Below are positions 29,032 through 61,085 of a stretch of DNA of 64,000 bases, piece by piece; the stretch's first letter is position 1, and every line of letters starts with the position of its first letter. The position numbers and the translations under genes are program-made. The stretch lies in the UHGV virus genome UHGV-0017507; one strand, written 5' to 3'. Origin of the DNA: a virus. The notes under the pieces were generated by a model. The model was not told where the DNA came from, searched no databases, and saw only the letters and a list, made by a program, of their open reading frames with translations.

Positions 29032-29443
29032 CGTCTATATCCTCTTCATCGTTTTCATCATCTTGTTCATAATCAACTAAACTGGTTTTTGCTGGGTTTT
29101 CTTCACCCAACTGAAACAATGTAGCCGCCTTTTGTTCAGCAGACCATTTACTACTCAATCTTAACACAGTTTTCTGAAAGCCCGGAATATCACCCGGCTC
29201 TGTATAGCAATGTTCTTGTGGATTCCAACGCCTCACGCCCGAACGAGGATTAATCTGCTTCCAGCCAAAGTGCCCAATACCAGGAATTGGCACCTCAACC
29301 TGCCCCAACAAACCCTCTCTAACAATTTCTCCATAGATATCAAGAGTAGTCTTTATCATGTCTGCCGGAAACCCTGTTCTAAGAAAAATTTGATAAGCTA
29401 CTTCTTTTTGTGTAAGCCTCGGTTTTTTTGATGTATAACCCAT
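29021..29443 (-). CDS. HU/IHF-like DNA-binding protein.
   Basis: Matches the HU beta-arm pattern: VPIPGIGHFGWKQINPRSGVRRWNPQEH...IPGFQKTVLRL. Confidence 0.4.
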   Translation of the reverse strand: MGYTSKKPRLTQKEVAYQIFLRTGFPADMIKTTLDIYGEIVREGLLGQVEVPIPGIGHFGWKQINPRSGVRRWNPQEHCYTEPGDIPGFQKTVLRLSSKWSAEQKAATLFQLGEENPAKTSLVDYEQDDENDEEDIDDGE

Positions 29444-32272: not shown

Positions 32273-32310
32273 GAATTATTTTGTTCATAGATTGTTTATA
32301 TTTTACCCTC

Positions 32311-32339
32311 TTGACAAACAAATAAAATGATGATATAAT
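32311..32339 (+). promoter_or_regulatory. Rightward promoter P1.
   Basis: TTGACA-N17-TATAAT with a TGa extension. Confidence 0.55.
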
Positions 32340-32445
32340 AAAATATAGAATATATAAATATATTAATTATAAATTACTAAGTTATTATATTCACATATAA
32401 GAGTATTTACATATACTTTATATACTTTAACATATATACTTTAAC

Positions 32446-32474
32446 TTGTCAATATAATATACAAAATTTATAAT
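32446..32474 (+). promoter_or_regulatory. Rightward promoter P2.
   Basis: TTGTCA-N17-TATAAT, preceded by ATATACTTTAAC-type tandem repeats. Confidence 0.5.
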
Positions 32475-32558
32475 ATACAGAATTTTGATTTTAATATATT
32501 AGACTGCGTAAGCAGGATAATATATTAAAAGAAAAATTCAAGTAAAAAGAAAAATTCC

Positions 32559-32846: not shown

Positions 32847-33945
32847 ACTATTGCAAAAGCAACAGAGTTCTTTACAGTTGGCAATTGAAGAATTGTCTAA
32901 ACAAAGAACTGCACTTCAAAATTTGAATAACGCTGTTCAAGAGAAAATAGACAAGGCAAATGAAAATCTTCGTTTTGTCCAATCTGGATTTAATACTCTT
33001 GAAGAAGTTGGCTATGAACGCTATGTCCCTACCACCCCAGACGATATTCTTGAGGGTAAGATTTATTGGGCCGAAAACAAAATGGCAAGAATGGCCGGTG
33101 AGGGCACTATCATCCAGTATAACAGAATTTATCGTGTTGATGGGTCTGAGGCCAAAGGTAAAAAATTTCAAGAGTCATTTGGTAAGAATTTATTAATTGG
33201 TTTTAACACTTATGTGCAAACTAAAACAAAATCTATTACAGATAGCAATTACTATCATACTCGCGAACTGATTAAAAAATCTTTTGATAAATATAATAAA
33301 CAAGGCGAATTGTTGGGCATTAGTCTTAATCCATATTATGTCAACCTTCGTCTTGAAATTCTTCAATACACGCTTGAGTTAAAGATTAAAAAAGCCAAAG
33401 AAAAAGCTCAACTTCGTGAAGAGCGTAAGCGAATGCGAGAGCAAGAAAAGTTACTTGAAGATATTGCTAAAGAACAAGAACGCCTTGAACAAGAACGCAA
33501 GTCTATGGATATTGCTTTTGCTAAAGCATTAACAGAAACAGAACGTCAAAAAATTAAGGCGCAAATGAACAAGATTGATAAGCGCTTGGATGATTTGGAA
33601 TACCGTAAAGAGCATAACAACGCTGGCTGGCTTTATGTGATTAGTTCGCCTAGTCTGCCTGGCATGGTGAAAGTCGGGTGCACCAGAAGGTTGGTGCCTA
33701 CAATCAGAATTCGCGAACTCAGCTCAAGTTCTTTACCCTATGCGTTTAGAACACATTGCTTTGTTTTTAGCGACAATTGCTTTGAGCTTGAAACACAGAT
33801 GCACCATTACTTTGACAACAAGCGTGTGGCACAAGACAGAGAGTTCTTTTACATCACGCCACAAGAGGCCATTGATGTATTAAAAAACAGATTTAAACAA
33901 GAAGTCCATTTTGAGGATGTTGAGGACTGCAATGACCAAGACTGA
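32788..33945 (+). CDS. DUF4041-type coiled-coil protein with a C-terminal T5orf172 (GIY-YIG-like) domain.
   Basis: Start after AAGGAGGATAAAA. The N-terminus is a coiled coil. The C-terminal segment GWLYVISSPSLPGMVKVGCTRRL...R.RELSSSSLPYAF...ELETQMHHYF fits the T5orf172 pattern. Confidence 0.5.
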   Translation: MLDFLKSLKQKRTEEEKKIELLQKQQSSLQLAIEELSKQRTALQNLNNAVQEKIDKANENLRFVQSGFNTLEEVGYERYVPTTPDDILEGKIYWAENKMARMAGEGTIIQYNRIYRVDGSEAKGKKFQESFGKNLLIGFNTYVQTKTKSITDSNYYHTRELIKKSFDKYNKQGELLGISLNPYYVNLRLEILQYTLELKIKKAKEKAQLREERKRMREQEKLLEDIAKEQERLEQERKSMDIAFAKALTETERQKIKAQMNKIDKRLDDLEYRKEHNNAGWLYVISSPSLPGMVKVGCTRRLVPTIRIRELSSSSLPYAFRTHCFVFSDNCFELETQMHHYFDNKRVAQDREFFYITPQEAIDVLKNRFKQEVHFEDVEDCNDQD

Positions 33946-34237
33946 AATTGCTGAACTAATTCAACGCCGGAGACTACAAATACTAGTACACAGTTGTATT
34001 TACTATGCGTATAACGAAAATCTTGTCACAGATAATACATGGACCAAGTGGGCTATAGAGCTTGAAGAACTACAAGCCAAACATCCAGAAATTGCCAACA
34101 CAGTTAGATGGGCTGAAGCTTTTAAGGATTTCGACCACAGCACTGGTTATAGCTTGCCTTTTGAGGAAATTGGTATTAGATCAAAAGCAATTCAGTTGCT
34201 AAGATATTCGGAAAAACGAAAAGACAAGGAGAATTAA
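33911..34237 (+). CDS. Hypothetical protein.
   Basis: ORF only. An alternative start at 33932 gives MTKTEIAEL. Confidence 0.35.
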   Translation: MRMLRTAMTKTEIAELIQRRRLQILVHSCIYYAYNENLVTDNTWTKWAIELEELQAKHPEIANTVRWAEAFKDFDHSTGYSLPFEEIGIRSKAIQLLRYSEKRKDKEN

Positions 34238-34748: not shown

Positions 34749-35180
34749 ATGGCACAGTTTCACAATACAAAAATTAATAGATATTTAAACATGGCCAAAG
34801 AGGCCAGTAAGCAATCTAACTTTAAGCAGCACCATCTTGGCGCTGTGGCGATTTACAAAGGTAGTTTACTGGCCACAGGCCATAACAGTACAAAGACCAA
34901 TCCCCGGCAGAAAGAGTTTAACCGTGAGCGTGGTTGGGATGTTGAGGCCAGTGACGTTCATAATACTGTTCATGCTGAGATGGCATGTTTGAGCAAGATT
35001 AGATACCTTGACATTGACTTTAGCAAGGTTAAGCTCTACGTTTATCGTGAACATAAGAATGGGGTTAAGGCATTGGCAAGGCCATGTCCAGCTTGCCAGA
35101 AGATGATTAAGGATATGGGGATTAAAGAAGTTTGGTTTACAACAGAAAATGGCTTTGGATATGAATGGACGGAGGATTAA
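34749..35180 (+). CDS. dCMP/cytidine deaminase-family zinc enzyme, closest to a ComEB-type dCMP deaminase.
   Basis: HAEMAC and PCPACQKMIKDMGIKEVWF match the deaminase motifs H(A/C)E ... PCxxC ... GIKEVxY. Confidence 0.55.
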   Translation: MAQFHNTKINRYLNMAKEASKQSNFKQHHLGAVAIYKGSLLATGHNSTKTNPRQKEFNRERGWDVEASDVHNTVHAEMACLSKIRYLDIDFSKVKLYVYREHKNGVKALARPCPACQKMIKDMGIKEVWFTTENGFGYEWTED

Positions 35181-36892: not shown

Positions 36893-36915
36893 GATTAAGA
36901 GGACTGAGAAATCAG
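36893..36915. terminator. Hairpin between convergent genes, read as a candidate bidirectional terminator.
   Basis: GAGGACTGAGAAATCAGCCCTC is an imperfect stem with a GAAA loop, followed by a T-run. Confidence 0.3.
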
Positions 36916-37844
36916 CCCTCTTTTTCTTTTAGCTGTTCGGCTGTGGCGAATATTTCTGGTTCATATTTTATGGCTTTCTCAACCATTTGCTCGTGGATGG
37001 ACTTAGGGATAATACCAAAGCGCTTGCTTTTAAGGAGACGATTAACTTGAGCGTTGTTGAACTTAGGAGCAAAGAAATCTACGAGCCGTTTAAGCTCAGA
37101 AGCCCTTGACACAACAAACGCCTTGGAATATTCATCAAACCCAAGTTCACGAATTTTGTTCCCAATAGCTTGATAATATTGCTTCACCGTCTTTGGCCCC
37201 AGTTTGTACAAATCTTGAATAGATTTAACTTCAACAGAATCCATAAAGTCAAGTTTCGCTTGTTCGATAATAGCCCTTTGTTCATCAGTAGCTATTTGAG
37301 CTTTTTCATAAATTTTATTTGGGCCGTAATGATAAATTTTTCTAAGCATATAGCTTTCGTAATAATCAATAAGCCCACGAGTTCTGAGTTTGGCTAAATT
37401 GGTCTTTAGGATATATTTATCATGCTCCTCAACGATATTGAACCAGCGCCCTTCAAATTCTTCTACGAGGTCGTTTGGAAAGTCGTAAGGAACCTTTATA
37501 TCCAATTCTTCCTTTCCATACTTATAAAGAAAATAATTCTTATTGACCATGTAAAGCTTTTTTCTAAAGTCACTATAAGTGTAAACTTGTTTAATATCGC
37601 CATCGGCAATTAAATCAAGCAAGGCAGCTTGAACAAAGTTATTATAATTTTTTTCGGCTTGAATTAGCGCCTTTTCTTCTTCAGTGTATTGTCTGTGGAT
37701 AATATATTTGCCATAGCCTACTTTTTCTATGTCATAAAACTCTTGTAATTTTTCAATATGGATTTTTCTATTATTTCCGCCCGATTGTTCTTTTTCACCT
37801 AATTTTTTGCATAATTCTGAATAGCTTAATTTTTCTTTGTCCAT
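36912..37844 (-). CDS. Hypothetical 310-aa protein convergent with the methyltransferase.
   Basis: Start MDKEKL follows AAAGGAGAATATT. No recognised motif. Confidence 0.4.
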   Translation of the reverse strand: MDKEKLSYSELCKKLGEKEQSGGNNRKIHIEKLQEFYDIEKVGYGKYIIHRQYTEEEKALIQAEKNYNNFVQAALLDLIADGDIKQVYTYSDFRKKLYMVNKNYFLYKYGKEELDIKVPYDFPNDLVEEFEGRWFNIVEEHDKYILKTNLAKLRTRGLIDYYESYMLRKIYHYGPNKIYEKAQIATDEQRAIIEQAKLDFMDSVEVKSIQDLYKLGPKTVKQYYQAIGNKIRELGFDEYSKAFVVSRASELKRLVDFFAPKFNNAQVNRLLKSKRFGIIPKSIHEQMVEKAIKYEPEIFATAEQLKEKEG

Positions 37845-37922
37845 AATATTCTCCTTTGAAGATGGTATAAGGTATGAAATCTTCATGCCGTAGCAATAAC
37901 GCTCTGCGTTTTGCGTTTTCGT

Positions 37923-37985
37923 AAAGATGGTAAAACTTTTTCCAATACTATAGATATATGTAATAGAAAATTCTTTACCATCTTT
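37923..37985. promoter_or_regulatory. Inverted repeat AAAGATGGTAAA-N35-TTTACCATCTTT, a candidate operator or hairpin upstream of 36912..37844.
   Basis: The two 12-bp arms are exact reverse complements. Confidence 0.35.
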
Positions 37986-38411
37986 TAAATATCCCTACTC
38001 TCCCACCTCTATCATATTATCACATATTAATACTATTGTCAATATATATAAATATAAGTTAACAGATTATTAATATTATTAATGTCTAGTGAAAAGGAGG
38101 CAGAAAGATAATAAGAAAGATTAGATATGATTGACTGGTTGAATAGAGAGGAGAGGAGTGAATTTTGAGGCTGGCTTGGGCGGTTGTGGGATGTTGGTGC
38201 TACAGAGCGTTTGGTATCGGGGAGGCGTTTGCTGCTCCAATACCTGGCCCCGGTTAGTTTACATAATTAACAGATGATAACAAAAATTATCCTCTGGATG
38301 GGGGGGTCTTGGTGATCTGAACCTGGTAGACGATTGTCTACCTCCCTCTCCCGAAAGTGTCGCAAAACTGCAACACATACGCGCACGCATTAGGCGGAGT
38401 ACGAAAGTTTG

Positions 38412-38760
38412 TATCACAATCAACTATACCAACCCCATCCACTCTAACCCTCCTTCCCTTCCCTTACTTTCCATTCTTTCCTAAGTATCTTTTAGATACT
38501 AACACACCACCCCACACTACAATCATTACTACATTACACCATTAATCATACTACACATAAAAACATCTACACCACGTCATATAATTCTTGAAACTACTTT
38601 TTCCATCATTCATCATACTATCATTCTTTCCCTTTCCTTTACTCTTTACCTTAGTATCTTCTTTACTATCTAATATAATATCAATAACTATATTACATTA
38701 CTACTCTTATCGCTTTTCCCTTATTCATCTTATACAAGTATATACATTGAATAACTATTC
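38412..38760. repeat. Tract of about 350 nt with almost no G on the plus strand (A/C/T only).
   Basis: Manual count finds about 8 G in about 349 nt, with long CCCTTCCCTT and CCACCCCACAC runs. A G-rich stretch at about 38090-38330 precedes it. Confidence 0.7.
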
Positions 38761-39241
38761 AAATATCTATCTTATTTTAAATATTGCAATTTTATTTTGA
38801 ATATTAAGGCCGTTTTTAATAGGTTCGTGTGAATATCTCAACCTTATAAATATACAAAATCGAGTTAAGGCCGAGGGAATATAATTACTAGGGTCCAGGC
38901 TAGAAACGATTCTAGGGGCTTTAAAACGCGAAATAGGCCGTATTTGTATTACGGACATATTGTACACGATAAAAAGACATAATTATAAAGCTGGGCCATA
39001 ATGCAAAGGCGGCTTATTATATTTATATAGTATTGAAACATACACAAAAAAGTTTTTATTTTTTGTCTATTCTGTCAATTGCAATATGATGGGGCCGGGT
39101 GTAAGATAAAGCCACAATCAAACAAAGGAACAACAAGGAGGTAAAAATGATTTATTACTATGTTGGGGCCGTGACGGTCTGCATTATGGGATGTAAATTG
39201 CTGTTTTGGGTTCTGGATAAGATTGAAGGAGGAAAAAAGTA

Positions 39242-39562
39242 ATGAAAAAATATTTTATCGTTCCTGGCAATTTTGCTAATCAATATTCTTTGTTTTGGAC
39301 TACGGATGCGGGTATGTATCCGGACGCTGCAAGCTATGAACACAAGTTCAACACCGCTGAATTTTTAGAGAAATACCCGCAAGCCGAACAAATCACCCGG
39401 GAAAAAGCTATTGCATACGCAAGGGCCGAACGCAAGCGGCGCAAGGAAAACGGGGCTTTTTCTGGATACGCTGATACATATATTCACCCGTACGGGGCAG
39501 CGTGGCATAATCCAGAATACGCATATTTACATACTGACAGCACTGGCGTTATTGTGGAGTAA
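39242..39562 (+). CDS. Small protein in the GC-rich island.
   Basis: RBS GGAGGAAAAAAGT. Preceded by a 27-aa TM micro-ORF at 39158-39241. Confidence 0.4.
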   Translation: MKKYFIVPGNFANQYSLFWTTDAGMYPDAASYEHKFNTAEFLEKYPQAEQITREKAIAYARAERKRRKENGAFSGYADTYIHPYGAAWHNPEYAYLHTDSTGVIVE

Positions 39563-39575
39563 GGGGGGTTATTTT

Positions 39576-39761
39576 ATGCTAATTCGAAAAGATATTGAAG
39601 CAATCTTTTCTACGCCTGAACTTTGGCAGGCATTCCATGATTTAGAAGAGTTATACCATTACCGGCGTAGCAGTCCAGAGATGAACGCAAGATATAAGGC
39701 TGCTTTCCGCATATTTAAAACACAAGTAGAAGGGAGCAAGGGCCAAATTATCCCATTCTAA
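39576..39761 (+). CDS. Small island protein.
   Basis: ATG after GGGGGGTTATTTT, 61 aa. The ORF 39411..39761 in the track is an overlap artefact of this gene. Confidence 0.3.
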   Translation: MLIRKDIEAIFSTPELWQAFHDLEELYHYRRSSPEMNARYKAAFRIFKTQVEGSKGQIIPF

Positions 39762-39879
39762 CATATTCACTAAAAAACTTTTCAAATCTTGTGCAAAATG
39801 CCTATTGCAAAATCCTTTGGGATTTGGTATCATACAATTACAGCAAGGAACAAAATAATTTTTTTGGAGGTAAATAAAA

Positions 39880-40274
39880 TGTCTGAACGTTATGATTATT
39901 TGGAGCAAGTCACAAGTGATGCAAAAGAAGCCATTATGGAGAGCATGAGCGAATGGGACTTTGATGACCGGGACGAGTTGGAACAGGTCGCAAATGATGA
40001 ATTATGGACAGACGATAGCGTGACTGGGAACGCAAGCGGGAGTTATTATTGCAACGCTTGGAAAGCAGAAGAAGCGCTTTGCCACAATTGGGATTTACTG
40101 GAAGAAGCTATTGACGCGCTGGGCGGCGACAAGGATATTTTAAAGGAGGGGGCTGAGGCTTGTGATGTTACTATCCGGTGTTACCTGTTAGGGCAAGCCA
40201 TTAGCGCAGCATTGGACGAGCTGGAGGAAAAGGGGAAAATCAGCTATCCGGCAGACGATGAAGAGGAAGAATAA
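39880..40274 (+). CDS. Highly acidic small protein, a candidate DNA mimic or anti-restriction protein.
   Basis: 131 aa with a very high Asp/Glu content and a poly-E C-terminus. It has its own TTGCAA-N17-TATCAT promoter at about 39810-39838 and the RBS GGAGGTAAATAAA. Confidence 0.4.
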
Positions 40275-40347
40275 AACAAGCGGCTTTCTAAGGGGTTTGA
40301 ACCTATCAAGCCCCATTCCAGAAATGTTTTTAGGGGGGTAAAATTAT

Positions 40348-40575
40348 ATGTATTTTATCAATGAAAAAGCCGGGGCAATGTCAACTAACGGAATGCCGGT
40401 TAACTTTGAAAAGGGGTTGCCCGCCTTATATCGAGCACAAGGCGCGAACCCTGATAGAAAAATTATTATCTGGCGAGATGTGAATAAAAATATTCATATC
40501 GAAACTTTATATAACAATGCTGAAAAAATTATTGAAGCTGTAAAAAAGTTTGAAAATGGAGAAGAATATTATTAA
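40348..40575 (+). CDS. Small island protein.
   Basis: ORF with the RBS GGGGGGTAAAAT. Confidence 0.35.
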   Translation: MYFINEKAGAMSTNGMPVNFEKGLPALYRAQGANPDRKIIIWRDVNKNIHIETLYNNAEKIIEAVKKFENGEEYY

Positions 40576-40605
40576 ACAAAAAAATAAAAAAGATTAGAGG
40601 CTTCC

Positions 40606-40632
40606 GGGCCTCTTTTCTTTTTGCCTGTTCCC
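40606..40632 (+). terminator. Rho-independent terminator.
   Basis: AGAGGC-TTCCGG-GCCTCT hairpin followed by TTTTCTTT. Confidence 0.55.
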
Positions 40633-40897
40633 TATAAAAATCAATAAGAAATGGCCCTGTAAACGCTTCTGCGTCGTTTGCCGTATGTTTTCACGTCTGA
40701 CGCTGGAAGGGCTACAAAGGGCCTTAAAATGCGTTATAGAGGTATTGCTAAAATAAGCCGTTGTTTTGTTGCTTTTGCAACAGTGAAAACGTCTAAAAAT
40801 TTTTTGAGTTTTCGTGTAGTTTAACTATTGCAATCTGCTACGGGGTATGGTATATTATGACCATAGCAAGAGGAAATAAAACAAGGAGGCAAATAAA

Positions 40898-41134
40898 ATG
40901 CGAATTTTGAAAAGTGGTAGTAACAAGGGTTGTTCTGAATTTTATTTTTCTATCGGTTTTAATCTGGACGATTGGTTTAATGAGGTGCGCTGCGCAAGCT
41001 ATGAAAAATCTATCCCCCAAGCCGTGGAAATGACGGCAGAAGAGTTTGGCGAAAGCGTGGAGGGTGTAAGCGTGCGCAAGATCAGGACCAACACGGGGCG
41101 CGTTATGTGGGAAAAGTCTGGGGCGGAATTTTAA
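40898..41134 (+). CDS. Small island protein.
   Basis: Own TTGCAA-N17-TATATT promoter at about 40828-40856. RBS AGGAGGCAAATAAA. Confidence 0.4.
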   Translation: MRILKSGSNKGCSEFYFSIGFNLDDWFNEVRCASYEKSIPQAVEMTAEEFGESVEGVSVRKIRTNTGRVMWEKSGAEF

Positions 41135-41262
41135 GGTAGAAAGTGGGGCTTATTAAACTTGCACAAAAAATTTATAAAACTTTGTGCAAGTTAACGATTG
41201 CGTTTTTGCTGGCGTAGTGGTATTCTATACTTGTCCCAAGGGACAGAAAGGAAGTAAAAAGT

Positions 41263-41409
41263 ATGAAAACAGAATTTTACACTTGTTGCGCGTGTAGCCG
41301 GGTTTTTGAAAAAAGGGAGGCTCAGGTTCCTGATGGGTATAAATGCCCCCGGTGTTTTGTATGGCTAGAATTGGGAATTGATGGGAAAACTACCGAAAAG
41401 AGACGATGA
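41263..41409 (+). CDS. 48-aa zinc-ribbon peptide.
   Basis: CCAC...CPRC. RBS AAGGAAGTAAAAAGT. Confidence 0.35.
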   Translation: MKTEFYTCCACSRVFEKREAQVPDGYKCPRCFVWLELGIDGKTTEKRR

Positions 41410-41414
41410 AAAGA

Positions 41415-41443
41415 GGGGGCGGGCTTCGGCCCGTTCCCTTTTG
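41415..41443 (+). terminator. Rho-independent terminator.
   Basis: GC stem CGGGC-TTCG-GCCCG, extended by GGG/CCC, then TTTT. Confidence 0.55.
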
Positions 41444-41587
41444 CCCAGGCACTTCATCATGGTAAAGCACTACCGCGCTACCGTGTTATCACTTCACCTC
41501 GCTAAAGTGGTAAAGTATTAAAGTATAAAATTTTTCATTTTTCCCCACGTAGCGTACGCATTAAGCATTTTTCCCATTTTTCCCAGC

Positions 41588-42048
41588 GATATTGTATATG
41601 TATATATAGATATATGTATCTATGTGTATATAAGTATATAGATGTATGTATAGATAGATGGATTAAAGTAGATATGAATGGGTGTATGCGTATATAGAGT
41701 TTAAATAGGACTTATAGGTAAAGAAAAAGATTAGAAAAATTGATTGATTAGATGAGTTTATAAGAAAGATGAGAAAAGTATAAGGCAGATAATAAAAGTG
41801 GCAAATAAAGTGGGTAAATCAATAAGTTTATTTATGCTAGTCTGTTTATATATTGATAGGCTGTCAAGGTTGTATATAGAAGGGGTTTAAAAGAATATCA
41901 TTAGATTGATAGATTGATGGAAGAATTAAGATGTATGGAGCATGAATAATGTTGAAGTTGTAAATGAAATTGTATGTGTAAATGATAATGTGTATGTATG
42001 TGTGAATGGATATGTAGATGAACGAATAAATGAATAGATAAATTTGTG
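41588..42048. repeat. Tract of about 460 nt with almost no C on the plus strand (A/G/T only), made of GTAT, GATA and AATG-type low-complexity units.
   Basis: Manual count finds about 13 C in about 461 nt. It is preceded by three copies of CATTTTTCCC. Confidence 0.7.
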
Positions 42049-42049
42049 C

Positions 42050-42078
42050 TTGACAAATAAAAAAAGATGAGTTATAAT
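42050..42078 (+). promoter_or_regulatory. Consensus sigma70 promoter for the lysin gene.
   Basis: TTGACA-N17-TATAAT. Confidence 0.55.
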
Positions 42079-42156
42079 CTAGGTATATCAGATGAGCCAG
42101 AAAATTGATTTTGAAAATCGAGTATGGAATTTAAATTAGAAAAGAGATAGAAGAAA

Positions 42157-42864
42157 ATGAATCATAAAATCTTAATCCAAATTTTAGTTTTGTTAATTGG
42201 AATTGAATTTTTTCAAATCGGAATTGAGTTTCATAAACTGAATCAAGAAATCGATAATCAAAAACGAATTGAGAAAACTCAAATCAAAACCCCAGTTGCA
42301 AAATCGATTTTTGAAATTGAGAATGGCCCGGTTGTGGGTGATGATATTGAAGCTGATGGTTGGGCTGGGAGTTTAGATTTAGATGTTCAGAATCAGATTT
42401 TTGAGGAGAGTTTAGTAGAATATTCTGCTTCACCCAAATCTAAATTTTATAATCTATCTGATGAAGATCGATATGTAATTGAGTGCATTATAGCTGGCGA
42501 GGCCAAAGGTGAATCCATGGAAGGCAAAATGGCTGTTGCGCAATGCTTGCTTAATGCTATGGCTAAAGATGGCTTGTCTGCATCTGAAGTACGGAAACAA
42601 TATCAATATTCGGGTTGGGATGATAAATTGCAAAATTCAAATCCAGAATGTTGGAATAAAGTCTGTGAGGCTGTAAGCCGTGTCTTTGACGATGGCGAAT
42701 TTGTATCAGATAATCCAATTCTGTATTTCTATGCGCCTAAGTGGGTGAAAAGCAAGTGGCATGAAAGCCTGCCCAAAGATCAGGTGATTGGCGGGCATAG
42801 TTTTCATTACCTTGAAGAAGATGTAAATGCAGATTGGTTTGTGAATTTGAAAGGAGAAAATTGA
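42157..42864 (+). CDS. SleB/CwlJ-type cell-wall hydrolase (lysin) with an N-terminal signal-anchor.
   Basis: IAGEAKGESMEGKMAVAQCLLNAMAKDG matches the SleB-domain pattern AEARGE..GQ.AVA.V..NR. The N-terminus ILIQILVLLIGI is hydrophobic. Confidence 0.5.
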   Translation: MNHKILIQILVLLIGIEFFQIGIEFHKLNQEIDNQKRIEKTQIKTPVAKSIFEIENGPVVGDDIEADGWAGSLDLDVQNQIFEESLVEYSASPKSKFYNLSDEDRYVIECIIAGEAKGESMEGKMAVAQCLLNAMAKDGLSASEVRKQYQYSGWDDKLQNSNPECWNKVCEAVSRVFDDGEFVSDNPILYFYAPKWVKSKWHESLPKDQVIGGHSFHYLEEDVNADWFVNLKGEN

Positions 42865-45279: not shown

Positions 45280-46119
45280 ATGATTGAAGCTTATACGAAT
45301 TATATGAAGTCTGAAAAGATGAGCGCCAATACGATGCGTGGCTATACCAATCACATCAATCAGATGCTTAGCATGGTCAATAAGCCTGAGTCTGAGATTA
45401 GTTATCTGGATTTGATTAATTGGAAGGCCAATATTAGTAATCAGGCCAGCGCTACAATCGCTAATAAAGTTGCCGCTATTAAGAGTTATTTTCAGTTTTT
45501 GGCTAACGCTGGTATTGTTGCTAACGACCCCAGTAAGAATCTCAAGCGGCCCGATCATATCAAGAATAAAGAAAAACCCTATATCAATGAAAATGATGCT
45601 AAATTACTGATTAAGTATGCACGGACATTTAGAGATAAGGCTATGTTTAAGTTCCTGCTGTCTACTGGCGTTCGGTTCTGTGAGATGGCCAATATTACGA
45701 TTGAGCAGTACAAAAAAGCCATAGAGAGCAACAGAGAGATTGATTTGGCTGTGACTAAGGGAGATAAAGGCGGCAAGATTTATGTAAACCAGTCTACCGA
45801 GGAGGCCATTACCACCTATCTTCGTACAAGAGATGATAATTGCCCTTATTTGTTCGCCTCTTTTACGGGAAATAAACTCAGTGACAATTGTGTGTCTCAT
45901 ACCATCAAGTCCACTGCAAGACGGGCCGGATTAAGTTATTGGAATGATCTTAGTTGTCATTGTCTGAGAGCCGCTTGTGCTACTATTATGAGCGATAAGA
46001 ATGTGCCTGTGGCCACTATTAGTAAGGTCTTACGTCATAGCTCTTTGGCTGTGACTACAAGATATATCAAGACAAGTCAGGATAATATCAATAATGCTAC
46101 AGCATTGATGGAATTTTAA
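45280..46119 (+). CDS. Tyrosine recombinase / integrase (XerD-like, 279 aa).
   Basis: Box I GVRFCEM, box II HCLRAA, and C-terminal LRHSSLAVTTRYI with the catalytic Tyr. N-terminal SAM-like domain. Confidence 0.7.
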   Translation: MIEAYTNYMKSEKMSANTMRGYTNHINQMLSMVNKPESEISYLDLINWKANISNQASATIANKVAAIKSYFQFLANAGIVANDPSKNLKRPDHIKNKEKPYINENDAKLLIKYARTFRDKAMFKFLLSTGVRFCEMANITIEQYKKAIESNREIDLAVTKGDKGGKIYVNQSTEEAITTYLRTRDDNCPYLFASFTGNKLSDNCVSHTIKSTARRAGLSYWNDLSCHCLRAACATIMSDKNVPVATISKVLRHSSLAVTTRYIKTSQDNINNATALMEF

Positions 46120-58971: not shown

Positions 58972-60063
58972 ATGGGTAAGGTTGATGTTAAAAAACTCAA
59001 GAAGGCATTGACCTTATCGCATTACGATACCATCCTTCGTGAGCTTGGTATCCCTATCTTTAGTAAGAGCAATACTGAATGGCGTTGTTGGTCTGGTGAA
59101 AAAAATCGCAATCCAATGGACGGTAGCCCAGCCCTTGTATTCTTCCCTGATACTAAGATATTCATAGGTTACACCAGTTCAAGAAGTTATGACGCAATTG
59201 CGCTAGTCCAAACCCGCCTAAATCTGCTTGGCCAAACTTGCTCATTCATTGATGCTTGTAACTGGATTCTTGAAAAAACTGGCCTCGACCCAACCAAGAT
59301 AACCAAGCCCCTTACAAATAGCCATGTTTATGACTGGTCTGAACTTGAGCGGTTTGTTAGGGTAAGAAAGTATGGTAATCAACTACCAGAGTACAATCGT
59401 AACATCATCGACACTCTACCCCCACTATACCCCCAAGCATGGATAGATGAGGGTATAAGCGAAGAAACAATGGCCAAATATCAGATACGATATTATGAGC
59501 GTTGTAACCAGACTGTAATACCATGTTTTGATGATGAAGCGAGATTGATTGGGGTTAGAGTCAGGAATTGGGACAAAGATAGGGTTGAACAGGCTAAATA
59601 TATGCCGTTGATTACACTGGATGGTCAGTGTTATAAGTTTAATACTAATCAGGTGTTCTATGGGATTAACTATAACAAGCCCATGATTGAGCAGACTGGT
59701 GAGGTTTGGCTAGGAGAGTCAGAAAAGTTTGTTCTCAAGTTAGATGGGTGGTTCGGCCCTAAATCATGTGCCCTTGCTATGTACGGTCATCAACTTGGTA
59801 TGCAACGCAGAAACCAACTAATCAAGATGGGCGTTAAACAAGTTATATATGTACCAGATTGTGACTTCATCGGTCAAGACGATGCCTTCTTTGAGAATTG
59901 GTGCAAGTCTGTAAGACGGCTATGTGATATGTTCAAAGGGTATTGTCAGGTTGATATAGTGTGGGATGATAGTGGTGAGTTGTTGGGGGCAAAAGAAAAC
60001 GCAAGTGATAGAGATAAAGAAACGTGGGATAAATTGTGGGAAAGTAGAGAGAGGTATTTATGA
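58972..60063 (+). CDS. DnaG-like primase with zinc-binding and TOPRIM-like regions.
   Basis: The N-terminus KIFIGYTSSRSYDAIALVQTRLNLLGQTCSFIDACNWILEKTG follows the DnaG zinc-binding-domain pattern. The acidic segments VWLGESEKF and YVPDCDFIGQDDA fit an E...DxD TOPRIM layout. Confidence 0.45.
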   Translation: MGKVDVKKLKKALTLSHYDTILRELGIPIFSKSNTEWRCWSGEKNRNPMDGSPALVFFPDTKIFIGYTSSRSYDAIALVQTRLNLLGQTCSFIDACNWILEKTGLDPTKITKPLTNSHVYDWSELERFVRVRKYGNQLPEYNRNIIDTLPPLYPQAWIDEGISEETMAKYQIRYYERCNQTVIPCFDDEARLIGVRVRNWDKDRVEQAKYMPLITLDGQCYKFNTNQVFYGINYNKPMIEQTGEVWLGESEKFVLKLDGWFGPKSCALAMYGHQLGMQRRNQLIKMGVKQVIYVPDCDFIGQDDAFFENWCKSVRRLCDMFKGYCQVDIVWDDSGELLGAKENASDRDKETWDKLWESRERYL

Positions 60064-60380
60064 AACTGTTTTTATTAGGCTTTTTGGCCTGTTATATCAT
60101 TGCGTCTTTGTTTTATTTTCTTGATGATGAAGCAGGCACATATTTAATGGCAGTTTTTGTTACGCCTTGGGTTGCTGTTTGGGTAGCTGTTTTATTTATT
60201 CCTCGTATTATTTGGCGATTTGTGTGGGTTTGTTTTAACCCTGCCCGGCCAGATGCTATGGAAATCTTAAAAGATGCTTATGTTAAACACCTGCTTGGAG
60301 AGATTTATTTCTGTTATGATAAAAAAGCTAAAAGCTGGATGAATAAAGTTTTCTTGTTTAGATATAAGGAGGATAAATAA
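60060..60380 (+). CDS. Membrane protein with two TM helices.
   Basis: The hydrophobic segments LFLLGFLACYIIASLFYFL and GTYLMAVFVTPWVAVWVAVLFIP are consistent with two transmembrane helices. Confidence 0.35.
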   Translation: MKLFLLGFLACYIIASLFYFLDDEAGTYLMAVFVTPWVAVWVAVLFIPRIIWRFVWVCFNPARPDAMEILKDAYVKHLLGEIYFCYDKKAKSWMNKVFLFRYKEDK

Positions 60381-61085
60381 ATGCCCAAACTGCTTGTTTG
60401 TTGTGAAGAATCTCAGCGTGTTTGTATGGCTTTTAGAGAAAGAGGATGGGAGGCTTATAGTTGTGATATTGAGCCTTGTTCCGGTGGCCATCCTGAATGG
60501 CACATCCAGCAAGATGTGCTGCCTCTAATCAATGGTGATTGTGAGTTTGATACGGTTGACGGTGAACATCATATTATCGAAGGTGAATGGGATTTGTTGA
60601 TTTGTCACCCACCTTGCACTTATCTTACTGTAGCTGGGAATCGTTGGTTTAATGTAGACAAATATGGAGATAAGGCACTTCAGCGTATGATAGATAGAGA
60701 AGGAGCGGTCGAGTTCTTTATGGCCTTTGTTAATGCCAAATGCGCACATATCGCCATAGAGAATCCTGTAGGTATTATGTCTAAGCGTTATCGCAAACCT
60801 AACCAAATCATCCAGCCCTATCAGTTTGGCGAACACGCAAGAAAAGGAACTTGTTTGTGGTTAAATGGACTACCCAATCTTGAGCCTACTGACGTTGTAG
60901 ACCCTGGCGATATCCTTAAAGGCGGGTATAGTGTTGGTGCTTCGGCTAACTGGGCAACTAATGATAAAGGCAAAATTTTACGTTGGAATGACCCCGAAAC
61001 AGCCAAAGCCAGAAGTAAGACTTTTATTGGCGTTGCAAAAGCAATGGCAAATCAGTGGGGCAAGTTTATCGAAAATAATACTTGA
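60381..61085 (+). CDS. C5-cytosine methyltransferase-fold protein whose AdoMet motif I is degenerate.
   Basis: DLLICHPPCTYLTVAGNRW aligns with motif IV (PCQxFSxAG, with a catalytic Cys). IAIENPVGIM aligns with motif VI (ENV). QPYQFGEHARKG loosely resembles motif VIII. In place of the FxGxGG loop the N-terminus reads LLVCCEESQRVCMAF. At 234 aa there is no large target-recognition domain. Confidence 0.4.
   Translation: MPKLLVCCEESQRVCMAFRERGWEAYSCDIEPCSGGHPEWHIQQDVLPLINGDCEFDTVDGEHHIIEGEWDLLICHPPCTYLTVAGNRWFNVDKYGDKALQRMIDREGAVEFFMAFVNAKCAHIAIENPVGIMSKRYRKPNQIIQPYQFGEHARKGTCLWLNGLPNLEPTDVVDPGDILKGGYSVGASANWATNDKGKILRWNDPETAKARSKTFIGVAKAMANQWGKFIENNT

Follow-up and report, generated by a model that had tools for sequence, protein, structure and literature searches.

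What keeps one particular base almost entirely out of long stretches of a phage genome? The locus that raises this question lies in a 64,000-nt stretch of the virus genome UHGV-0017507 (hereafter, the window), which is from a phage according to its gene content. The first-pass annotation had described two tracts, one with about 8 G in 349 nt and one with about 13 C in 461 nt, on either side of a GC-rich island, and a G-rich stretch to the left of the first tract. These counts turned out to be exact. Positions 38412-38760 contain A108 C102 G8 T131 (349 nt), and positions 41588-42048 contain A184 C13 G108 T156 (461 nt). The G-rich stretch is real and constitutes a depletion tract of its own, and the layout of two tracts had to be extended to three, here termed a, b, and c:

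38041-38170, plus strand: tract a, C-less and G-rich
38412-38798, plus strand: tract b, G-less, C-rich next to a conserved core that separates it from tract a, and AT-rich distally
41588-42048 (scoring segment to 42213), plus strand: tract c, C-less

Depletion was scored by assigning -10 to the depleted base and +1 to any other base and by taking the maximal segment. The maximal segments were 38412-38798 for G (score 288) and 41588-42213 for C (score 362), compared with top scores of 107 (G-less) and 133 (C-less) in 200 block-wise shuffles. Tract a reached a segment score of 86. Tracts b and c are the two strongest single-base depletions of the window, and their skew, mirrored around the island, is far stronger than ordinary strand bias, as had been proposed. 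When the whole window was searched for at most 10 C per 200-nt window, 41567-42176 was the sole stretch found. The corresponding search for at most 10 G gave 38395-38822 and, weakly, 32295-32501, the latter being simply AT-rich. No comparable depletion occurs elsewhere in the window. Among 120 unrelated viral loci (1.08 Mb), no segment scored 200 or more, and the top score of 190 came from phages with a GC content of 27-30%.

The relatives of this phage are uncultured contigs of 70-100 kb from human gut metagenomes, one of which is a contig of a Hadza metagenome-assembled genome labelled Eubacteriales. No DNA match from a cultured relative of the region was found in phage or plasmid collections. 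A metagenome scan, anchored on the P- 26-mer from a near-invariant 75-nt block described below, recovered 14 loci. The order of tract a, core, tract b, island, and tract c is kept together with the polarity of the tracts in about 20 distinct loci, that is, in every relative long enough to show it. The same arrangement was observed in L001-L004, L009-L011, L008/L022, L221, and L236-L239, and in all 14 metagenomic loci as far as each extends. The unit of tract a, core, and tract b is present in L070, L023, and L016, which share 50-61% identity in the RNA polymerase. The sole relative without tracts (L007 and L207; IMG/VR 3300045988_105318, 89.7 kb) lacks the whole block from 32.3 to 42.05 kb. 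In this contig, the polymerase operon is joined almost directly to the hydrolase promoter, and the methylase, the gene next to tract a, the three tracts, and the island are all gone. Neither of the outcomes that the first-pass annotation had named as refuting was observed, whether chance depletion of this strength elsewhere in the genome or loss or unpairing of the tracts in close relatives that retain the island. Across distinct loci, the tracts have the following properties:

Tract a, 19 loci: median length 128 nt; median C 2.1%; pooled G 40%, C 1.9%
Tract b, 18 loci: median length 369 nt (129-655); median G 2.3%; pooled A 37%, C 24%, T 36%, G 2.6%
Tract c, 9 loci: median length 182 nt (131-626); median C 1.65%; pooled A 40%, G 22%, T 35%

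The composition of the tracts is far better conserved than their sequence. In a locus whose neighbour protein is 93% identical (L236), just the first ~120 nt of tract b are shared, and the remainder is unalignable, longer, and partly duplicated. Substitutions inside tract b are strongly biased. Among L011, L022, and L221, T->C changes amounted to 0.27 and A->G changes to 0.086 per site inside the tract, compared with about 0.10 for both just downstream. Between the window and L237, 22 C<->T but 3 A<->G differences were counted inside the tract, and the ratio was about 1:1 elsewhere. In these two independent comparisons, A<->G changes were thus ~3-7 times rarer than C<->T changes inside tract b and about equally frequent outside. 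The shortage of A<->G changes therefore means that G arises without accumulating. We conclude from these alignments, as a robust result, that the missing base of each strand is held out by selection, with the sequence itself turning over fast. Slippage adds to the changes in length; it does not explain the purity of the tracts. Identity between the window and L237 is uneven, with 89.9% in tract b, 72.6% in the core, and 55.8% in tract a, which suggests a recombination joint near the junction of core and tract b. The upstream end of the Logan contig of L236 consists of the Illumina adapter AGATCGGAAGAGCGTCGTGTA, an assembly artefact within or just past tract b.

The missing base is mostly replaced by A, not by T. 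Cytosine deamination was considered as the cause of the depletion and rejected, because A rather than T abounds in the C-less strands. A search for a motif shared by tracts a, b, and c found none. ATGGAT and ATAGAT are enriched in tract c and ACTAT-type words in tract b. Read in the G-less orientation, tracts b and c share trinucleotide preferences, with TAT, ATA, CAT, and ATC over-represented and AAA, TTT, CCT, and CTC under-represented. The first 80 nt of tract c alternate between T and a purine, with a period-2 power of 11.3 compared with a null 95th percentile of 1.5.

The physical properties of the tracts are unusual as well. Folding of both strands of tracts a, b, and c as single-stranded DNA (ssDNA) yielded 0 to -4.2 kcal/mol per 130-150 nt. 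The coding controls gave -5.6 to -16.5 kcal/mol, and a more AT-rich gap at 32.3 kb gave -7.6 and -8.7 kcal/mol. Among all 150-nt RNA windows of the 64 kb, those with the least structure are the G-less senses b(+), c(-), and a(-), at 0 to -8 kcal/mol versus a mean of -27 kcal/mol. In 100-bp windows, the duplex stability of tract b falls into the lowest 4.6% and that of tract c into the lowest 1.9%, while the core belongs to the top 4%. The first 80 nt of tract c are among the least stable 0.2% and show the highest density of pyrimidine-purine steps in the window. As expected for an unwinding element, a low-stability stretch adjoins conserved boxes. The earlier suggestion of unwinding elements agrees with both the low duplex stability and the missing single-strand structure.

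On the plus strand, the order of the region is tract a, the 240-nt core, tract b, the early-gene island, a box, tract c, and a consensus promoter, and the element is placed where gene blocks diverge. In addition to the tracts, the region contains the following features:

36912-37886, minus strand: gene for a 324-amino-acid (324-aa) protein with several winged-helix domains, a putative regulator or initiator
37859-37985: three copies of the phage-specific 9-12-mer AAGATGGTA in the 5' untranslated region (UTR) of the 324-aa gene
38003-38078, minus strand: near-invariant 75-nt block with the promoter P- (TTGACA-17-TAATAT, 38042-38014) for the 324-aa gene
38171-38411: GC-rich conserved core of ~240 nt, delimited from alignments of relatives
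39079-41440, plus strand: island of small early-type genes with sigma-A-type promoters and intrinsic terminators
41490-41592, plus strand: junction before tract c, with CTAAAG-type short repeats, AAAATTTTT, and the box ACGCATTAAGC...TTTCCCAGCGATAT
42050-42078, plus strand: promoter with a perfect consensus (TTGACA-17-TATAAT) for the rightward operon of the cell-wall hydrolase and the genes after it; also the right boundary of the 10-kb block that contig 105318 lacks

The core contains the words TTGGGCGGTTGTG (TTAGGCGGTTGTG in most relatives), GGTGCTAC, CCCCGG, and ACATAA, and a palindrome of the GATAAC-N5-GTTATC type, which has the form GATAACAAAAATTATC in the window and is invariant among relatives. 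Its consensus fold amounts to -6.7 kcal/mol, with one compensatory pair among 12 sequences, and the search of Rfam gave no match above noise in the region. The core as a structured RNA was rejected for want of supporting covariation and of an Rfam match, and long-range pairing between tracts a and b as an RNA fold was dismissed at z-scores of -1.25 and -0.78. As judged from its sequence, the core is probably protein-bound DNA, because the sequence is conserved, the palindrome is invariant, and RNA covariation is missing. At the core end 5' of tract b lies the box ACGCATTAGGCGG (38385-38397). A small conserved palindrome within tract b, AGTATCTTTTAGATACT (38484-38500), holds two of the eight G. 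The junction before tract c is kept in L001-L004, L009, and L221, and TGnTATATA-like words follow the box of tract c in three of five relatives. The box thus stands 5' of both tract b and tract c on the same strand, although tract b is G-less and tract c is C-less. As a genome-wide promoter word, the box (ATTARGCGG) was rejected, as it showed no enrichment. The 14-mer TTTCCCAGCGATAT, tried as a probe for viral contigs, was abandoned as well; it returned mostly chance matches, with three of 120 in relatives of this phage.

Our preferred explanation, which we put forward tentatively, takes the tracts to be zones that selection keeps free of hairpins and in which the DNA is unwound or proteins are loaded, as part of an origin-like or regulatory nucleoprotein complex in the early region. 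It starts from properties that were computed or observed, namely composition, conservation, selection, missing ssDNA structure, low duplex stability, and conserved boxes; protein binding, unwinding, and a link to replication are what we infer. With all G:C pairs pointing in the same direction, neither strand would pair with itself through G:C. Opening of the duplex would then leave both strands free of hairpins and would form no cruciform. A candidate protein, perhaps the multi-winged-helix protein encoded next to tract a or else an initiator of the host, would bind the core or the box, upon which the flanking tracts would open. Clean single strands might thereby be offered to a DnaB-type helicase and a primase, or to polymerases. 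The phage encodes its own helicase and primase, and no initiator was recognised among its proteins. Since the box has the same orientation before the G-less tract b and the C-less tract c, a direction-free property of the duplex or of both strands is more economical than a property of an RNA. In a more general form, which taken as a whole is rather doubtful, the tracts would represent a new type of cis-acting element that is defined by an absence instead of a motif. Its opened strand or its transcript would be unable to pair with itself and may evade a C- or G-dependent host enzyme, which would provide a protected runway for replication or early expression. Primase start sites, cytosine deaminases, and base-specific nucleases are examples of such a dependence.

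Several observations speak against unwinding or loading zones. The GC content of the tracts, 31-35%, is not extreme, and a 10-11-bp helical periodicity was absent from the eight tracts examined. An AT-rich gap at 32.3-32.5 kb is even less stable and coincides with the minimum of the cumulative GC skew, which lies at ~32-33 kb and not at the tracts, and which is confounded by gene orientation. Known unwinding elements are 5-10 times shorter than the tracts, and tract c lacks a separate core. Degenerate arrays of DnaA boxes were sought in the window and rejected, with no box (at most two mismatches) in tract b and no enrichment in tract c. DnaA-box-like words of the TTTTCCACA type do occur, two to three of them in the core before the TTAGGCGG box, in the clade of L011 (2480-2530), L022, and L221 only. 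The phage-specific repeats of the 324-aa gene are absent from the core and the tracts, and no iterons matching them were found there. The fold search with the 324-aa protein returned generic winged-helix matches only. Finally, the related phage represented by contig 105318 does without the entire block.

The main rival explanation treats the tracts as transcriptional insulators that load Rho in the manner of rut sites. Transcription in the G-less sense would produce C-rich, unstructured RNA and would stop exit from the core, leftward through tract a and rightward through tract b, as well as leftward entry into the island through tract c. Composition and folding suit this proposal. Pooled, C and G make up 24% and 2.6% of tract b and 40% and 1.9% of the reverse complement of tract a. 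The G-less senses have the lowest RNA structure in the window, as given above, and b(+), c(-), and a(-) each provide C-rich, G-poor RNA that stays unstructured over 80 nt or more. Furthermore, the unit of tract a, core, and tract b is symmetric under reverse complementation and would work in both directions. However, no promoter was found that feeds the tracts in their G-less senses, and intrinsic terminators are already present at the borders (37898-37910 and 41412-41440). What is constrained is G, which stays absent even where C drops to ~15%, and known rut sites are 2-8 times shorter and far less pure. Tracts b and c would have to work in opposite directions, which does not fit the common orientation of their box, and the proposal presupposes that Rho matters in the putative Clostridia-type host. 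We regard Rho loading as unlikely. Still less probable is that the transcripts themselves are functional non-coding RNAs, either unstructured sponges or molecules invisible to G- or C-dependent RNases or deaminases. A composition that is kept without the sequence, the lack of structure in the G-less sense, and the TGnTATATA-like words mentioned above would be in line with such RNAs. We found, however, no promoter-terminator pair that defines a transcript, no motif common to the three tracts, and no Rfam match, and transcription in one direction from the common box would yield RNAs with opposite missing bases. We consider this possibility very doubtful.

The first-pass annotation had also pointed to a geometry that favours R-loops. 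In a transcript-primed origin, a C-free, purine-rich RNA would stay hybridised and prime DNA synthesis, with transcription either toward the core (tract a on the plus strand, tract b on the minus strand) or outward across tract c. Tract a, with 40% G and 2% C, and the core-side end of tract b, with G clusters on the minus strand, direct a G-rich sense at the core from either side, and it is mainly for tract a and the core-proximal part of tract b that such a reading is possible. ColE1 RNA II, oriF and oriG of T4, the mitochondrial conserved sequence blocks, and herpesvirus oriLyt share the strong GC skew and the G-rich sense toward the core. Hybrid-minus-duplex energies, estimated with nearest-neighbour parameters (Sugimoto 1995; SantaLucia 1998), do not single the tracts out. 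With C-less RNA, tract b ranks at the 10th, tract a at the 12th, and tract c at the 31st percentile of 200-nt windows, which is unexceptional, and many coding regions are more favourable. The G-less sense lies at the ~95th percentile and is unfavourable. Tract c and most of tract b are A/T-rich, with 22-27% G. A scan for consensus promoters gave no strong promoter directed into any of the three tracts in the C-less sense, only 9/12 matches besides the TGnTATATA-like words after the box of tract c, and RNA made by the YonO polymerase does not stay paired with the template (PMC5467207). An R-loop origin is therefore improbable. Could the tracts be neutral low-complexity DNA instead, grown by slippage or duplication of short units that lack one base? 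Their length varies 5-fold (129-655 nt), local repeats are significant in L023 (z 16), L070 (z 7), and tract c of L003 (z 5.8), tract b of L236 is partly duplicated, and Tandem Repeats Finder detected degenerate periods of 8-24 nt in tract c. Yet a first-order Markov null accounts for the internal repetition seen in the tracts of the window (z 1-1.6), A<->G changes in particular are scarce, and in genomes of limited size the three tracts have stayed in place, with their polarity, down to a polymerase identity of 50%. Neutrality is about as credible as functional RNAs, and we think it very improbable. Least probable, and close to dismissal, is the proposal of a mobile cassette that carries the island and ends in the tracts. 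The gene content of the island does differ among relatives, and the right end of tract c is one boundary of the 10-kb block missing from contig 105318. This deletion spans 32.3-42.05 kb, however, and not tract b to tract c, all other relatives keep the three tracts, and the island encodes no transposase or recombinase. There is no inverted or direct repeat between the tracts at the sequence level; of the degenerate compositional inverted repeat claimed earlier, the composition holds and the sequence does not (k-mers of the reverse complement of the left tract versus the right tract, z ~-1.5 against composition-matched shuffles). Neither a prophage nor an empty-site junction appeared among the 14 metagenomic matches.

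The island itself is less exceptional than it had seemed. Its GC content of 41.5% compares with 38.7% in the window as a whole, where many 1-kb windows lie at 42-47%. Nor is it evidently foreign, as the proposed horizontal acquisition would imply; it is an early-gene region with promoters common to relatives. ATTGCAA words serve as -35 elements at ~39079 and ~40828, and terminators lie at 40596-40613 and 41412-41440. The promoter blocks are repeated and highly conserved between variable small early genes, and shuffling at these blocks explains the variation in gene content better than cassette ends do. CTAAAG-type repeats precede tract c and the island promoters alike. GC-rich words, GGCCTTAAAA(C/A)GCC or AAGGCCG, recur in AT-rich spacers at 38800-39000 and between the island units of relatives; they may be operator sites of early promoters. 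The words CCTATTGCAA and AAAAATTTTTT are common to the island promoters and could be sites of the Xer-like protein encoded at 45280-46119.

On the other side of the core, sequence-based searches gave no identity for the 324-aa protein. The word AAGATGGTA occurs in exactly three copies in the 5' UTR of its gene and in none in the core or the tracts. Two copies form an inverted repeat with 26-nt arms, and the third adjoins the Shine-Dalgarno sequence. The word varies between relatives (equivalents in L001, L003, L009, and L011), and the copy number is constant at three, a pattern that suggests a co-evolving set of operators or an RNA switch. The sequence CAATAACGCTCTGCGTTTTGCG (37896-37917) is almost invariant in all relatives; on the plus strand, it reads as a small intrinsic terminator (37898-37910) facing the convergent upstream operon. 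The near-invariant 75-nt block was considered as a phage attachment site (attP) and rejected, as its left flank was kept in 14 of 14 metagenomic matches and no junctions were seen.

A YonO-type single-chain RNA polymerase (PF05183; 46% identity to SPbeta YonO) stands at the head of the leftward structural-gene block. The rightward genes encode the cell-wall hydrolase, two tRNAs, the Xer-like recombinase, a Sak4-like protein, a DnaB-like helicase, a primase, and a RecJ-like nuclease. The hydrolase was used as a probe for related loci and recovered none. The Xer-like tyrosine recombinase is 78-81% identical among relatives and, by analogy with SPbeta, might be a master repressor of the MrpR/YopR type (PMC10516654) instead of an integrase. 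Further genes encode a protein of the dCMP/cytidine-deaminase family (34749-35180; also in relatives), a small protein with an Nlig-Ia domain, the N-terminal domain of NAD ligase (33911-34237), and an HU/YonN-like DNA-binding protein with an acidic tail (29040-29442, minus strand), the last assigned by eye. The very AT-rich, unstable gap at 32295-32501, at the minimum of the cumulative GC skew, separates a yonP-like gene from a T5orf172 gene; in SPbeta-like phages, the equivalent position harbours the packaging and opening site (bioRxiv 10.1101/2021.11.22.469490). SPbeta (NC_001884; L220) has a 1.7-kb non-coding gap between yonN and yonK (59153-60833) of ordinary four-letter composition, and no equivalent of a single-base-depleted tract was found in SPbeta.

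Among known systems, the 13-mers and DnaA-trios of oriC, the lambda origin, and iteron origins share with the tracts a strand-asymmetric stretch of low stability beside GC-richer boxes. Also shared are an adjacent gene for a putative DNA-binding protein with its own repeats and, in one clade, DnaA-box-like words. In contrast, unwinding elements measure ~30-100 bp and the tracts 130-650 bp, the tracts are distinguished by a missing base and not by AT-richness, and they are three in number, with no iterons found. The likeness to rut sites and to R-loop origins ends where the points raised above begin: length, purity, a ban on G where C is low, no known transcription unit upstream and the presence of intrinsic terminators for the former, and ordinary hybrid energetics, A/T-richness of most of tracts b and c and no strong promoter in the scan for the latter. 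In telomeric repeats and artificial G-less cassettes, too, one strand uses three bases for hundreds of nucleotides. The C-less tract strand leads 5' to 3' away from the island much as telomeric G-strands lead toward chromosome ends. This likeness is purely formal, as the tracts are non-repetitive and non-terminal and neither telomerase nor protelomerase is present. The mobile regulatory cassettes of T4-type phages, with repeated conserved promoter blocks between variable early genes, resemble the island and not the tracts, and account for the gene variation without tracts as ends. We file the element as an unusual variant of an unwinding zone or of a rut-like spacer and as a member of neither, at least one defining feature of each family being absent or unconfirmed.

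Full-text literature searches returned no description of three-letter, G-less, or C-less phage tracts. If functional, the tracts would represent non-coding phage DNA under strong selection for strand-specific composition without conserved sequence, and such elements would be invisible to annotation based on motifs, alignments, or covariance. Other phages can be screened for this compositional signature. In the widespread family of uncultured gut phages with a YonO-type polymerase, the tracts mark an early control or origin-like region.

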